DNA of 64,000 bases from an uncultured Acidobacteriota bacterium (GTDB lineage Bacteria > Acidobacteriota > Vicinamibacteria > Vicinamibacterales > Fen-181), in the NCBI GenBank assembly GCA_963701315.1, contig OY969603.1, positions 2,896,394-2,960,393 of the forward strand. Reading direction: 5' to 3'. Below, piece after piece: positions 18,481-31,158 of the stretch. Position numbers and translations under genes: made by a program. Each line of letters starts with the position of its first letter. The stretch's first letter is position 1. The notes below the pieces were generated by a model that saw only the letters and a list, made by a program, of their open reading frames with translations, was not told the DNA's origin and did not search any database.

Positions 18481-19287
18481 CTACGCGGCCTTCGCCCCGG
18501 CGTATACCGCCCACGGCGTTCGGTAGCCGAGGGACTGGTGAGGCCGGCGGTCGTTGTAGAACTGAAAGTACCGGGCCAGCTGCCGACGCGCCTCGGGCAC
18601 CGTGCCGTAGTCCTTCAGATAGATCTCTTCGTACTTCACGGAGCGCCAGAGGCGTTCGACGAACACGTTGTCCAGCGCCCGCCCGCGGCCGTCCATGCTC
18701 ACCCGCGCCCCGGCGGCTTCCACGCGGTCCGTGAACGCCGTCGCCGTGAACTGGGCGCCCTGGTCCGTGTTGACGATCTCGGGGCGGCTTCGGCCCAGGG
18801 CAGCCTCGAGCGCGTCGACGCAGAACTGGCCATCGACGGTCACCGACAGCTCCCACGCCAAGACGTCGCGGCTGAACCAGTCCAGGATCGCGACGAGGAA
18901 CACGAAACCGTGGCGCAAGCGCACATCCGTGATGTCGGTGCTCCACACCTGGTCGACCCGCGTGATCGGGACGTCGCGCAACAGATACGGATACACCTTG
19001 TGCCCCGGATGCGGTTCACTCAGGCGCGGTGTCGGGCCGACCGCCTCCAACCCCATTTCCCGCATCAGGCGCTGGACGTGCTTCCGATTCACGGCGTGCC
19101 CCACGCGATCCTGCAAGGCCACCTGCATCCGCCGCGAGCCGTAAAACGGCGTCGCGGTGTACTGCTCGTCGAGCAGGCGCATCACGTCCAGGTCCGCCTC
19201 GCTGACCACCGCCGGCCGGTAATAGAACGAGGACCGCGGCAGCTCCAACAGGGCACACTGCTGCGCGACGCTCAGCCTCGGGTGCAT
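18481..19287 (-). CDS. IS3-family transposase OrfB (DDE/rve integrase core)
   Basis: ...VWSTDITDVRLRHGFVFLVAILDWFSRDVLAWE...NTDQGAQFT...DNVFVERLWRSVKYEEIYL carries the D, D and E motifs. Its frame is open upstream to 19338, overlapping orfA. Confidence 0.9.
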   Translation of the reverse strand: MHPRLSVAQQCALLELPRSSFYYRPAVVSEADLDVMRLLDEQYTATPFYGSRRMQVALQDRVGHAVNRKHVQRLMREMGLEAVGPTPRLSEPHPGHKVYPYLLRDVPITRVDQVWSTDITDVRLRHGFVFLVAILDWFSRDVLAWELSVTVDGQFCVDALEAALGRSRPEIVNTDQGAQFTATAFTDRVEAAGARVSMDGRGRALDNVFVERLWRSVKYEEIYLKDYGTVPEARRQLARYFQFYNDRRPHQSLGYRTPWAVYAGAKAA

Positions 19288-23360: not shown

Positions 23361-24047
23361 TCAACGGCTGGTCGTCTCCGACTTCCGGAGTTCGACGGCG
23401 TACTGCCAGAGGAGGTGCCCCGAGTAATCCACGTGCTGTCGAACAACCTGCTCGGCACGATCGCCGTCGCGAGCGCCGATGGCATCGACTAAGGCGCGAT
23501 GCTCCTGCTGCGAGCGCGGAAGGTACGACGGGAGAAAGCGAACTGTTCGAAGCCGGCAGGTCTTCCCGAGCAACCCCATGGCCATCGAACGCAGCGACGA
23601 ATATGGGCAGGCGCGGAAGGTCGCCGCGTGAAACTGGTAGTTGAGTTCCGGATAGCCCAGCTCATCGGCTGCTGCGGCGGCATCCATGCGGTCAAGGAGT
23701 TCTCGGAGCTCGGTGAGGGCATCGGACCCAATATGGATGGCCGAGATCCGGACCGCCACTCCCTCCACGGCTGCCCGGATGATGGACGTCTCAAGGATCT
23801 CTTCGGGAGACAGGTCGGGAACGACCGCGCCTATGTGAGCCCTTGCCTGAAGCCAGCCCTCGCCGATGAGGCGGTCAACTGCGCCGCGCACGGGAAGCTT
23901 GCTGACGCCAAGTTGACTGGCGACCTGGTCAACGACGATGCGGGTGCCAGGTCCGTACCGACCGGCGAGAATCTCCTTGCGGAGCACGTCGTAGACCAGG
24001 TCAGTCTTGGTCCGGTAGCCGGCCAACGACCTAGGTGAGAGACCCAT
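23361..24047 (-). CDS. GntR-family transcriptional regulator (FadR/FCD subfamily)
   Basis: GGAGAGGAG RBS. Winged-HTH LVYDVLRKEILAGRYGPGTRIVVDQVASQLGVSKLPVRGAVDRLIGEGWL followed by an all-helical FCD-like domain. Confidence 0.85.
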   Translation of the reverse strand: MGLSPRSLAGYRTKTDLVYDVLRKEILAGRYGPGTRIVVDQVASQLGVSKLPVRGAVDRLIGEGWLQARAHIGAVVPDLSPEEILETSIIRAAVEGVAVRISAIHIGSDALTELRELLDRMDAAAAADELGYPELNYQFHAATFRACPYSSLRSMAMGLLGKTCRLRTVRFLPSYLPRSQQEHRALVDAIGARDGDRAEQVVRQHVDYSGHLLWQYAVELRKSETTSR

Positions 24048-24487
24048 TCGTGAACTCCTCTCCAAGCCAATCGTATCAGATGTCCGAGATCGCGCTGGAC
24101 GAATCGGCCGCCAACGTCGACCGCTGATTCGGTGACCCACTGCGCGGCTTCGGGCGGCGGCGGCGTGTCCGTCGGCCTTCGACGCAACCCCTGCGCTCGC
24201 AGCGTAGTGCCAGGCAGTGCGGCGCGGCGAATCGCCCGCGCGCTATGCGCTGCATGGGCAACATCGAGTGCGGCGTGTCGCGCCCCACCTTCCCGACGGG
24301 TTCGCAACTTGAGGTCCAGAGGCCTTCAACAACAAGGGGGTACGCACAATCTGGGCCCGCACGAGCCGCGGACGCGCGCGCACGACGAGCGTCGACGATA
24401 GGCCTGTGGCGAGCGTGGAGGTGGCGGCGACTCAGGTCTCTTGGTGAGTGCACCGGACCGCGGCGTCCGCCCAGCCTGACCATTGAG

Positions 24488-28291: not shown

Positions 28292-29888
28292 GTGTCACGC
28301 AACGTCGTAGTGGTCATGCTCGACACGCTACAGTTCAACTACCTCGGTTGCTACGGCAACGCGTGGATCCACACGCCTCATATCGATCGGTTTTCCAAGC
28401 AGGGCGTGCTCTTCGAGAACGCGTACACCGAGGGACTTCCTACCATCCCGTGCCGGCGCGCCATGTTCACCGGTCGCTACACGCTGCCCGTGAAAGGTTG
28501 GTCGCAGCTCGACATCGACGACACGACCATTGCCGACCTGTGCTGGGGCCACCCTATCGACACCGCGCTGGTGGGCGACGCCGGACCCCTTCGCCTTCCG
28601 AAGTTCGGCTACTCACGCGGCTTCGATAAGGTCCATTTTATCCACGGTCACGAAACCGACCACCAGGTACCTACGCCCAGGACGAGCTTGCCGGCCTCCG
28701 GGCGGAAGACTACTTCGAGGACCACGTCATGGAGAGCGCGGACACGATCCTCGGCGAGACGGTCGTCCGTCCGCTCATGAACCAGGTGGAATGCCACCTG
28801 AAGGAGCGCCAGGTACCTGGAAGTCGGACGACGACCAGCACGCCGCGCAGGTGATGAAGGCCGCTTCGCGCTACCTGGAGAGCGCCGACCGCAACAAGTC
28901 GTTCTTCCTGTGGGTGGACTGCTTCGATCCCCACGAGCCCTGGGACCCGCCCTCGGTCTACGACCGAACCCTGCGATGTCCGTACGACCCGGACTACCAG
29001 GGCAAGGACATGTTCCTGCCGATCCAGGGGCACGTGCGGGGCCTTTACACGGAGCCAGAGCTGCACCACATCCGGATGCTCTATGCCGAAAAGGTCACGA
29101 TGGTTGACAAGTGGTTCGGCTGGTTGATGGACAGGATCCGGGCGCTCGGCCTGGAAGAGAACACGCTGGTGCTACTCGTGTCGGATCATGGCTGCCCCAT
29201 GGGCAACGGTGAGCACGGCCACGGGATCATGCGCAAATGCCGTCCGTGGCCGTACGAGGAACTCGCGCACATTCCGATGATTGTTCGCGGTCCCGGCCTG
29301 CCGCACGACGCGCGCGTGTCTGGTTTCGTGCAGTCCTGCGACGTCGCGCCGACCGTCGTCGACTGGCTCGGGATCGGCGTTCATCCCTCGATGCAGGGCA
29401 AGAGCCTGCTGCCTCTCGCGAAGGGCGAGGTCGAACGGCTGAGGGACTTCGCCCTCGCGGGGTACTTCCGCTACTCCTGGTCGCTCATCACGCCGGACTG
29501 GTCCTTCATCCACTGGCTCAAGGACGAGGAGAAGACCGTCGCCGATTCGCGGTTCGGCATGTACGGCCGCGAACTAGCGCAATCCACGGCGCACCTGCTC
29601 CAAACGAGGAGGCTGAATGCGGTGGAGGATCGAGACACGGCCTTCTACACGAGAGCGTACGAGGAATACAAGAAAGCCGCAACCCTCGATGGCGAGGACC
29701 AGTGGACGTGCACGGCGGCCAGTTCCGGAGAGGTGCCGGCACGCGACGAGTTGTACCACCGGGTAGCGGATCCGTTCCAGCTGAGGAACGTCGCAGCGGA
29801 GAAGTCGGACGTCGCCCGTGACCTGTTCGAGCGGCTTCGCCTCTTCATGGCTGAGCTGCGGGCGTCGGACAGCGGTGCTCTGTTGTGA
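28292..29888 (+). CDS. cytoplasmic sulfatase-family (alkaline-phosphatase superfamily) enzyme with Thr at the FGly position; two apparent -1 frame breaks
   Basis: No signal peptide. Motifs VVVMLDTLQ..., LPTIPCRRAMFTGRY (T-x-P-x-R-x4-TG), FFLWVDCFDPHEPW and LLVSDHG. Coding signal moves frame 2 to 1 at 28666 and frame 1 to 0 at 28812. Confidence 0.8.
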
Positions 29889-30241
29889 CCGCAGGGAGGG
29901 CGGCGCCAGTGGCCGAGAACATCAGGCTTCTCACGACGGACACGTTCGCTGATCACATCGCCACCGGCCTGAATCGGGTCGTGCTCGTGTTTCGGCAGCG
30001 CTGCCCCAATTGTCAGGTCTTGATGGCGGTCATCGACAAGTGTCGCGGGGCCTGGCCGGATCTCGACGTCGCCGGCATCGACGCAGACGAAAGCCCGGCC
30101 CTGCTCGAGCAAATGGGGGTCAGCAAGGTTCCAACCGTCCTCGTCTTCCGAAACGGCGAGTTGTCCGCGCGCAGGACCGGGGTGATGAGCCCGTCAGAGC
30201 TGCGGCGTCTGATTGCGTCGGCAGCAGCTCCACACCCATGA
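29885..30241 (+). CDS. thioredoxin-fold protein with CPNC active-site motif
   Basis: GTG start overlaps the sulfatase stop (GTGA). Motifs VLVFRQRCPNCQ and ...VSKVPTVLVFRNGE match a thioredoxin fold (WCGPC replaced by RCPNC; cis-Pro region VPT). Confidence 0.8.
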   Translation: MTAGRAAPVAENIRLLTTDTFADHIATGLNRVVLVFRQRCPNCQVLMAVIDKCRGAWPDLDVAGIDADESPALLEQMGVSKVPTVLVFRNGELSARRTGVMSPSELRRLIASAAAPHP

Positions 30242-31158
30242 GCGAGTCCGAGCGTGACCTGATCGTCGTCGGCGGGGGGATTGCAGGCATGACGGCCGCG
30301 ATCTATGCGGCGCGCGCGGGCCTCGACCTCCTGTTGCTCGAGAAGGCGACGTGCGGAGGGGTCGCAAACGCCAGTTGCAGCGTCGAGAACTTCCCGTCCT
30401 ACCGAGCCATCGGCGGCATGGAGCTGATGCAGAGAATCAAGAGCCACGTCCGCTCGTTGGGCGTTCCCATCGAGGAACTGACCGAGGTCGAACATGTCGA
30501 CCTCGAATCCAGGACGAAGACGATCACGACGGCCGACGGCCGATACGGGGCGAGGACGCTGATCATCGCGACGGGCAGTGCGCCGAACCAACTTCCGATC
30601 GAAGCCGCCTGCGACGAGCGGGTCCATTACTGCGCGCTCTGTGACGGCCCTGCCTACAAGGGAAAGGACGTGGTGGTCGTCGGTGGAGGGAATACCGGGT
30701 TCGACGAGAGCCTGTATCTCGTCAGTCTGGGCGTGCGATCGGTCGTGCTTCTGGAGTGCCTGGAGACCTGCGGCGCCGCGCAGGCCATTCAGCAAAGAGC
30801 CGAGTCCACCGGGAGAATCACGGTGAGGACGAGTTGCCGCGTTCGCGCCCTCGTTCCCGACAACGAGCGGGTACACCTAGCCGTCGACGACGCTCGAAGG
30901 GGCTCGAGCGACGCGGTCATCGCGGACGGCGTGTTCGTGTACATCGGGCACACGCCAAACAGCGCGATCGTCGCGGGGAAGCTGGATCTCGATCCGTTCG
31001 GCTCCATCGTGGCCGACGCCTTGATGCACACCAGTCGTCCCGGCGTCTTTGCGGCTGGCGACGTGGTTGCCAAGAGATACAGGCAACTGACGACTGCGAT
31101 GGCGGATGGAACGATCGCCGCCCTAGAGGCGGCGAGATACGTGCGCGAGTGCGCGTGA
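30238..31158 (+). CDS. thioredoxin reductase-like FAD/NAD(P)H disulfide oxidoreductase (TrxB-like)
   Basis: ATG overlaps the upstream stop (ATGA). Motifs VVGGGIAGMTAA (FAD), HYCALCDG (redox CxxC, compare CATCDG), VVGGGNTGFDESLYL (NADPH) and FAAGDV. Confidence 0.85.
   Translation: MSESERDLIVVGGGIAGMTAAIYAARAGLDLLLLEKATCGGVANASCSVENFPSYRAIGGMELMQRIKSHVRSLGVPIEELTEVEHVDLESRTKTITTADGRYGARTLIIATGSAPNQLPIEAACDERVHYCALCDGPAYKGKDVVVVGGGNTGFDESLYLVSLGVRSVVLLECLETCGAAQAIQQRAESTGRITVRTSCRVRALVPDNERVHLAVDDARRGSSDAVIADGVFVYIGHTPNSAIVAGKLDLDPFGSIVADALMHTSRPGVFAAGDVVAKRYRQLTTAMADGTIAALEAARYVRECA

Follow-up and report, generated by a model that had tools for sequence, protein, structure and literature searches.

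The stretch of DNA analysed here, called the window throughout, comprises 64,000 nucleotides (nt) of contig OY969603.1 from an uncultured Acidobacteriota bacterium, and the system in question is a module of three co-oriented genes tightly packed on its + strand, which encode a sulfatase-family enzyme, a thioredoxin-fold protein (Trx) and a TrxB-like flavoprotein reductase. The enzyme gene starts with the GTG at 28292, with the Shine-Dalgarno sequence GGAGG six nt upstream, and its TGA stop codon lies at 29886-29888; it is followed by the gene of the 110-residue Trx (29909..30241, +) and by that of the 306-residue reductase (30238..31158, +). A preliminary description of this DNA had regarded the three genes as chained by a GTGA and an ATGA start/stop overlap. 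The ATGA, shared by the stop of the Trx gene and the start of the reductase gene (30238-30241), is real and is kept in a close relative, locus L085. As for the GTGA, the letters do exist at 29885-29888 and GTG 29885 is the most upstream in-frame GTG of the Trx gene, but the start is more likely GTG 29909, 21 nt past the stop of the enzyme gene, because the recorded 110-residue gene call matches it exactly, the annotated start in L085 agrees, and the N-termini of 30 homologues point to it together with a GGGAGG box (29895-29900) 9 nt upstream.

The sulfatase-family enzyme

Residue numbers refer to the repaired enzyme of 530 residues, that is, after removal of four extra bases from its gene (see below). 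The sulfatase fold is assigned by Pfam in both halves, namely in an N-terminal segment (28292..28666, +, codons 1-125 in frame 2; PF00884, E=4.8e-17) and in a C-terminal segment (28812..29888, +, frame 0; PF00884, E=4.5e-18, and SGSH_C), by a profile search of the PDB (E=3e-29), and by Foldseek (E ~1e-23, template modelling (TM) score 0.6-0.69) on an AlphaFold2 model with a predicted local distance difference test (pLDDT) of 82.6 and a predicted TM score (pTM) of 0.86. The best solved relatives are S1 sulfatases and phosphonate monoester hydrolases (PMH), with an identity of just 16-21%.

At the C/S-x-P-x-R site, where formylglycine (FGly) is formed, the enzyme reads Thr51-Ile-Pro-Cys54-Arg-Arg (28442-28459, +). 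The preliminary description had placed Thr at the nucleophile position of this site and held FGly maturation to be impossible, and the alignments bear this out: Thr51 falls on the FGly Ser of S-G-P-S-R in BT4656 (5g2v), the signature register P-x-R-x-x-x-x-T-G-R is exact, and among the 96 enzyme-family members from fetched loci in which residue conservation was counted, position 51 is Thr in 93/93. With Thr in place of Cys or Ser, FGly cannot form; the SulfAtlas authors stated that oxidation of Thr would yield a ketone, which was never demonstrated (PMC5066984). Among the clustered open reading frames (ORFs) of the 77 loci described below, a search that did not extend to whole genomes, no radical S-adenosylmethionine or FGly-generating maturase was a recurrent neighbour.

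Other active-site residues agree with a metal-dependent member of the fold. The predicted metal ligands are Asp11 (codon 28322-28324, +) and Asp297-His298 (S-D-H-G, 29181-29192, +), with His as the fourth ligand as in the PMH/EfAS type, and His213 (in DPHEPW, 28926-28943, +) and Lys314 (in RK, 29229-29249, +) align with the sulfate-pocket His and Lys; all of them are invariant in the family. Arg101 and Lys104, also invariant, fall in a family-specific stretch of the profile alignment. What is more, position 472, in Q-W-T-Cys472-T (29700-29714, +, Cys codon 29709-29711), is Cys in 95/95 family members. Position 20 is less strict (Cys in 86, Ala in 5), and position 54 is Cys in 65, Val in 25, Ala in 3 and Thr in 1. 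In the model Thr51 caps the helix 52-60, with residue 54 one helical turn off, and residues 437-480, including Cys472, have a pLDDT below 50; the C-terminal segment that carries Cys472 is family-specific and, to judge from the model, probably flexible.

As the preliminary description had noted, a signal peptide is absent: the protein opens with strand beta-1 and the metal ligand Asp11, and there is no hydrophobic N-terminal domain. From these features the enzyme is predicted to be a cytosolic, metal-dependent protein of sulfatase fold without the usual formylglycine residue. With the S1 sulfatases and PMH (4UPH, 5G2V, EfAS 9KOQ) it shares the fold, PF00884, the register x-x-P-x-R-x-x-x-x-T-G-R, the Asp and Asp-His ligands (as in PMH/EfAS) and, by alignment, the His of DPHEP and the Lys of RK, whereas it differs from them in its Thr for Cys/Ser, the lack of a recognisable GKWH motif, its cytosolic location, the extra C-terminal segment with an invariant Cys, and the linkage to a dedicated thioredoxin system.

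The thioredoxin and its reductase

The Trx (PF00085) carries the active site C-P-N-C (30002-30013, +) in place of WCGPC, and its best solved relative is 2L6C. The reductase (Pyr_redox_2, E=2.8e-46) contains V-H-Y-C-A-L-C-D-G-P-A-Y (30622-30657, +) and GGGNTG (30682-30699, +), and in the alignment to 4zn0 its Leu-Leu-Glu (within 30742-30765, +) replaces H-R-R, so that HRRxxxR is missing. Both proteins score far below the NCBIfam equivalog cut-offs for the housekeeping proteins (Trx, 46.7 vs 96.8 for TIGR01068; reductase, 252 bits vs 343 for TIGR01292). The same features recur in the 30 Trx and 29 reductase homologues from the neighbourhoods compared here. The Trx active site is C-P-[H/N/Y/F]-C, CPxC being kept in 28 neighbours (CPHC 21, CPNC 4, CPYC 2, CPFC 1), and in the reductases [V/I/M]-H-[Y/H/F]-CxxC-DG precedes Pro or small residues and then GGGN(S/T)(G/A), while in 29/29 a Glu at the end of the NAD-domain strand takes the place of the His-Arg-Arg of TrxB.

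These are the marks of a published system. Desulfothioredoxin (Dtrx, or Trx3) of Desulfovibrio vulgaris Hildenborough (DvH) was reportedly described by Pieulle in 2011 and Garcin in 2012, and 2L6C is the D. vulgaris Trx3, DVU0378 (2024 preprint). According to Valette et al. 2017, its reductase TR3 has His for Ser in the V-S-Y before CxxC, has lost the Phe-Phe residues for Trx docking and has no HRR; NADH is its preferred cofactor and its specificity for Trx3 is strict, while Trx3 itself lacks general disulfide reductase (insulin) activity and is positively charged on the surface that surrounds its active site, and the function of the system was stated to be unknown (PMC5627308). DvH mutants in the trx3 operon lag on sulfate and thiosulfate, and sulfite or cysteine rescues them (preprint). 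The window pair resembles the D. vulgaris one in C-P-x-C, in the adjacent trx and trxR genes, in V-H-Y before CxxC, in Pro where the Phe-Phe docking residues stood and in the missing HRR. It differs in CPNC vs CPHC, in following the enzyme gene directly where a Crp-type regulator intervenes in the D. vulgaris-type cluster, and in its high-GC host outside the Desulfobacterota; the C-x-Q motif of TR3 is just approximate (C-D-E-R), and the identity to the proteins of a D. vulgaris relative is 29% for the Trx and 45% for the reductase. By its sequence signatures, then, the pair is of the Trx3 (desulfothioredoxin)/TR3 type, the latter a low-molecular-weight thioredoxin reductase, and the preliminary view of a dedicated, non-housekeeping pair stands.

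Conservation of the gene linkage

Relatives of the enzyme were collected by a scan of one genome per species, which gave 582, and the best 77 loci were examined. Most of them belong to Desulfovibrionaceae, including Bilophila wadsworthia (at least 2 copies), metagenome-assembled genomes (MAGs) of Mailhella (more than 10 copies), Maridesulfovibrio, Halodesulfovibrio and others, and the remaining ones to other Desulfobacterota, Chloroflexota, Phycisphaerae, SAR324 and an Asgard MAG. Homologues of both Trx and reductase are present in 29 of the 77, typically 18-250 bp downstream of the enzyme gene, so that the triad of enzyme, Trx3 and TR3, whose conservation the preliminary description had left to be checked, occurs in Desulfobacterota (including Bilophila), Chloroflexota, Phycisphaerae, SAR324 and this high-GC genome. 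The adjacent, co-oriented trx3-trxR3 arrangement is found in the window, L085 and about 30 other loci. In the closest relative, L085/L086, whose reductase is 82% identical, an intact triad stands in the same wider synteny as in the window, the order being GntR, Sortilin/BNR protein, an intact 530-residue enzyme, Trx, reductase, TonB-type outer-membrane protein (OMP), amidohydrolase and amino-acid permease.

Searches in the reverse direction arrive at the same enzyme. From Dtrx, they led to a D. vulgaris relative, whose Trx3 shows 90% identity, and to Halodesulfovibrio aestuarii, where an NhaC-type transporter, a sulfatase, a Crp regulator, Trx3, TR3 and a small protein follow in this order; the sulfatase, which reads G-L-P-T-I-P-V-R-R and W-T-C, belongs to the same Thr-type family and shares about 46% identity with the window enzyme in BLASTP, or 50% when only the columns aligned by MAFFT are counted. 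From the reductase homologues of the isolates Desulfopila and Desulfofustis, they led to clusters of a Trx3-like protein, the reductase and an enzyme 74-75% identical to that of the window. The minimal clusters are limited to the enzyme, Trx3, TR3 and a transporter (TRAP, TTT or other), to which a small protein is often added; anion transporters of these kinds are the usual company of the module.

As to what in the enzyme the pair goes with, the preliminary description had considered redox gating of the Cys three residues past Thr51. In a flank test on 54 family members with at least 3 kb on each side, the pair being counted within 3 kb, 10 of the 15 members with the pair carry Val or Ala at position 54, which disfavours Cys54 as the target of Trx. 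A wider survey used a search of 1.84 billion representatives and 80 metagenome loci (L092-L171) obtained with a wider profile. The Trx-linked enzymes form two or three clusters at 50% identity, all with W-T-C, and beneath these comes a large group of cytosolic sulfatase-like proteins that have T-x-P-x-R but lack W-T-C (P0269-P0412; L092-L171). Among the 80 loci the pair is present in 8/17 with W-T-C vs 0/63 of the other Thr-type ones (Fisher p=8e-7), and among those with at least 2.5 kb of flank on both sides, in 4/4 vs 0/26 (Fisher p=4e-5). Thr at the nucleophile position is thus common and calls for no thioredoxin by itself; the pair correlates, as far as these sequences tell, with a clade whose distinctive invariant cysteine is Cys472 and which is highly conserved (60-92% identity across phyla). 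A few close relatives of the T-x-P-x-R set are Cys-type (C-M-P-A-R).

In about 15 loci the module is accompanied by a protein of 83-99 residues (L006:6704-6976, L043:11350-11655, L083:7727-7978, L084:7685-7939, L087:8255-8521, L090:7903-8202 and others), absent from the window, with the motif I-x-I-W-D ... E-P-P-S ... R-[LV]-P-[VA]-L-E-I-x-G and no CxxC; its similarity to Thioredoxin_3/GST_N is weak and below threshold, and no significant family or structure match was obtained for it. In addition, single genomes of Desulfovibrionaceae/Mailhella carry more than 10 enzyme paralogues, often in tandem, beside sigma-54 activators and TRAP transporters (L013, L020, L026, L032, L033, L042, L053, L081 of Mailhella sp. 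EPI_MAG_00058, and loci of CAZJOG/CAZPTC MAGs).

Frameshifts in the enzyme gene of the window

The preliminary description treated the enzyme as the product of a single intact gene, which does not hold for the window. The span 28292-29888 has 1597 nt, no multiple of 3, and uses three frames rather than one ORF; frame 2, entered at 28292, stops at 28778-28780 and gives a product of 162 residues. The frame changes at two places. At the first, CAGGTACCT (28664..28672, +) stands where homologues have CAG-TAC-T (Gln125-Tyr126), and the frame passes from 2 to 1; the middle segment (28669..28812, +, about residues 126-173) is read in frame 1 only, in which YAQDELAGLRAEDYFEDHVMES...KERQ matches the homologues; at the second, CAGGTACCT again (28810..28818, +) stands for CAR-TAC-T (Gln173-Tyr174), and the frame passes from 1 to 0. 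DNA alignments with the relatives L001 (89% identity) and L085 (86%) place the extra bases at 28667, 28671, 28813 and 28817. The change is identical at both junctions, from CAG/CAA-TAC-T to CAG-GTACC-T, with a G before the Tyr codon and a C after it; the lesions are 146 nt apart, and each makes AGGTACCT (a KpnI site). At these junctions full-length homologues of 515-530 residues, with identities of up to 92%, have ...DHQ-Y-YA... and ...KERQ-Y-WKS..., and within the window CAGGTACCT is confined to the two lesions (expected 0.14).

Removal of the four bases leaves exactly 1593 nt, or 530 codons, the length of the intact gene in close relatives. Moreover, 118 of the 161 differences from the enzyme gene of L085 lie at third positions, with 106 synonymous vs 38 non-synonymous codons, a pattern that does not change across the lesions. 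The restored reading frame and the excess of synonymous differences are evidence that the enzyme gene was, as its sequence suggests, functional until very recently. The truncated product of 162 residues is on the public record for the same contig, and the lesion therefore sits in the deposited assembly, in which the enzyme gene is annotated as fragments.

Several explanations of the lesions were tried and rejected. A sequencing error linked to the motif is opposed by the sites that are intact elsewhere in the window (AGTACT at four other sites, CCAGTACT at two on the minus strand, CAGTAC at 24), and no other GGTACC site acts as a lesion, so that a simple basecalling error is unlikely. Programmed frameshifting would call for a slippery heptamer, which is missing, and the lesions are absent in relatives of 86-89% DNA identity; with a single +1 shift the conserved middle segment would be read in the wrong frame; and excision of the 146-nt repeat-bounded unit as a removable insert leaves the frame unrestored. 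Recurrent truncation in other assemblies was rejected as well, the partial homologues P0038, P0042, P0062, P0068 and P0083 being chimeric or adapter-terminated contigs unrelated to the lesion sites.

To judge from the sequence as assembled, two 2-nt insertions inactivate the enzyme gene, and either the module in this genome is freshly dead or the assembly is wrong at both sites. We consider it slightly short of an even chance that the module is a dead remnant in this organism, with a fresh sulfatase pseudogene and a Trx3/TR3 pair left over or serving another client. Two frame-breaking insertions so close together and both in the public assembly speak for it, as do the identical 8-mers intact elsewhere and the absence of any further uncompensated indel in the ~9 kb aligned to L085. 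On the other hand, without the four bases the gene bears every sign of selection, and two identical complex changes at identical 7-mers resemble a technical artefact more than independent mutations, two such mutations being unlikely. In any case, the question concerns this copy only and not the nature of the module.

Some related motifs are over-represented in the window compared with dinucleotide shuffles (GGTACC 14 vs 7.8, AGGTACC 7 vs 2.2, CAGTAC 24 vs 11). In L083, a long-read-style contig (contig_8707, 241 kb), the enzyme copy is frameshifted elsewhere, at about residue 354-379 (L083:8001-9570), and there is no Trx pair within 8 kb of it.

Possible role of the thioredoxin pair

We tentatively favour, at somewhat below even confidence, the reading that Trx3/TR3 is the catalytic reductant for a thiol step in the enzyme cycle on imported organosulfates, possibly releasing sulfite. 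After import of an anionic organosulfate, the metal-bound Thr51 would take the sulfuryl group, and this adduct could not be eliminated in the way of the sulfate on the FGly gem-diol. The sulfuryl group would then be passed to, or attacked by, the thiol of Cys472 or of Trx3, giving a thiosulfonate, and Trx3 would resolve this S-sulfo-Cys472 or S-sulfo-Trx3 and free sulfite as happens in PAPS reductase, so that the products would be the alcohol and sulfite. Electrons would run from NADH through TR3 to Trx3, the NADH-preferring TR3 recycling Trx3. The further claim that the Cys472 subfamily is a thioredoxin-dependent, formylglycine-free "sulfate-ester reductase", in which the group moves from Thr51 to a thiol and sulfite rather than sulfate is released, appears unlikely in this specific form.

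The reductive route is favoured because thioredoxin-dependent chemistry on such groups has, to our knowledge, just one good precedent, namely reduction through an adduct on Cys. The reductases of 3'-phosphoadenylyl sulfate (PAPS) and adenylyl sulfate (APS), CysH, and the arsenate reductase ArsC carry out a Trx-dependent two-electron reduction of a tetrahedral oxyanion via an adduct on an enzyme Cys; in PAPS reductase a thiosulfonate forms on a flexible C-terminal Cys and sulfite is freed, and ArsC evolved from a phosphatase fold. Neither has kinship in sequence or fold with the window enzyme, so that the likeness would be one of mechanism, suggested by the gene linkage, the invariant Cys in a segment of low model confidence, and the sulfur metabolism of the hosts, which are mostly sulfate or sulfite reducers. 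The alkylsulfatase gene of the Phycisphaerae cluster (see below) and the sulfur phenotypes of the trx3-operon mutants of DvH fit this context. Another comparison is offered by LtaS, EptA/MCR-1 and OpgB, which have a domain of the alkaline-phosphatase superfamily with a metal-bound Thr nucleophile, the adduct being resolved by an acceptor other than water; that single-metal Thr enzymes such as LtaS and EptA pass the group to such an acceptor supports the idea that the Thr51 adduct would need one too. However, these are membrane-anchored, periplasm-facing phospho-transferases with T-x-N-x-E rather than P-x-R and without a Trx partner, and the window enzyme is without an N-terminal multi-pass membrane domain of the LtaS/EptA type.

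Several points weigh against the reductive reading. The potential of Dtrx, which we take to be about -180 mV, is rather oxidising, and the conversion of an alkyl sulfate to alcohol and sulfite would lie near -320 mV (sulfate/sulfite -516 mV; hydrolysis about -37 kJ/mol); sulfite would therefore have to be kept very low, or the esters be aryl or otherwise activated ones, for the reduction to proceed. The Lys/His-A motif GKWH is not recognisable, the aligned positions being Asp96 and Gly98, and sulfate esters, rather than phosph(on)ate esters, are only the presumed class of substrate. The association of the pair with Cys472 is confounded with clade membership and phylogeny, in Mailhella-type genomes an adjacent pair is found in just 3/34 paralogues, and the enzyme gene is frameshifted in this very window. 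In the mre operon of D. alaskensis G20 a Trx3-type thioredoxin is reportedly tied to the reduction of U(VI) and Cr(VI), and the published Trx3 interactome gives other partners, the word sulfatase being absent from it (preprint).

The strongest alternative for the role of the pair is a redox switch or repair system: the enzyme would be an ordinary hydrolase with Thr51, and Trx3/TR3 would keep Cys472, perhaps paired with Cys20, reduced, so activating or reactivating the enzyme. We regard this as rather unlikely, but as a real contender. It would agree with the large Thr-type group that has no Trx pair and is presumably hydrolytic, with the many paralogues without an adjacent pair, with the position of Cys472 in a probably mobile segment, and with Trx3 reportedly being an isomerase rather than a reductase and relatively oxidising; protection by disulfides is known in Desulfovibrio for PFOR/Trx1, as cited in PMC5627308. 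Against it, a dedicated, NADH-driven and partner-specific system in the same operon is a heavy investment for mostly strict anaerobes of at least five phyla, Trx3 shows no response to oxidative stress in DvH (preprint), and nothing else in the minimal operons would need the pair.

That the target of the pair is instead the substrate or product (an imported compound with a disulfide, thiosulfonate or sulfoxide group, or a product to be reduced), the enzyme only removing the ester group, we hold to be improbable. The positive surface of Trx3 would suit anionic small molecules (PMC5627308) and anion transporters are regularly in the clusters; yet the pair tracks the enzyme subfamily with the invariant Cys and not the type of transporter or an accessory catabolic gene, and the contexts vary widely (proline-racemase family, aldehyde dehydrogenase, SDR, MttB). 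Finally, chance adjacency of a housekeeping Trx/TrxB pair, for which only the general similarity to TrxA/TrxB speaks, is hardly credible at all, being refuted by the synteny kept in many phyla and found in both search directions and by the contrast between W-T-C and other loci, besides the sub-cut-off scores and the CPxC and TR3 signatures.

The preliminary description did not recognise the combination of genes. Each part belongs to a known family, and Trx3/TR3 has been published as a pair; we found no discussion of its connection with the sulfatase. A full-text literature search, whose coverage did not include the original papers on desulfothioredoxin and the mre operon, gave none that links a sulfatase to Trx3/TR3, and none on a reductive, Thr-type or thioredoxin-dependent sulfatase. 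The Trx3/TR3 system of sulfate reducers has lacked a known physiological client since 2011, and the enzyme is a concrete and testable candidate in many phyla. It also defines a subfamily of the sulfatase fold unable to use formylglycine chemistry and expanded in gut Mailhella, with at least two copies in Bilophila; gut Desulfovibrionaceae, including the pathobiont Bilophila, matter for intestinal H2S production. If sulfite were indeed released from organosulfates, this would be a new enzyme chemistry and a new route from sulfated host compounds to sulfide, by which sulfite respirers such as Bilophila wadsworthia and sulfate reducers would gain direct, ATP-free access to organosulfates of host or environment, and the orphan Trx3/TR3 would gain its client. 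Were the enzyme merely a redox-switched hydrolase, it would still be a maturase-independent type of sulfatase, of practical interest.

Neighbouring genes and substrate leads

The gene company of the enzyme gives a weak lead to its substrate. Within the ortholog group (at least 74% identity), TctABC, a proline-racemase-family gene and GntR stand alongside the enzyme in Bilophila, Desulfopila and Desulfofustis, with an additional OCD/mu-crystallin gene in the Desulfopila cluster (proline-racemase-family genes, plus the OCD/mu-crystallin gene of Desulfopila, at L006:3513-4520, L090:1112-2167 and 114-1103, and L091:437-1492, where L006 is a locus of B. wadsworthia ATCC 49260). Other contexts of the group hold RidA and a D-Ser-dehydratase-like gene (L083), MttB genes and an ABC transporter (L084), and, in the window, an amidohydrolase and an amino-acid permease. 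This company of amino-acid and proline-racemase genes hints that the substrate may be an esterified (sulfated) compound resembling a hydroxy-amino acid, perhaps one of hydroxyproline type. In Phycisphaerae bacterium SM23_30, a cluster with a TRAP transporter, Trx3, TR3 and the Thr-type enzyme also holds an SdsA-type (metallo-beta-lactamase) alkylsulfatase and two SDR genes (L054:1709-3613).

Upstream of the module in the window, a gene for a GntR/FCD regulator (23361..24140, -) is syntenic in the close relative and recurs beside the module elsewhere, so that it is a possible candidate for the regulator of the module. In L085 an IS66-family transposase (L085:9050-10480) lies between the genes of the reductase and the TonB-type OMP, where the gap in the window is 47 nt. 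The window itself carries an IS3-type integrase ORF (rve, HTH_21) at 18481-19287 (-), about 9 kb upstream of the module.

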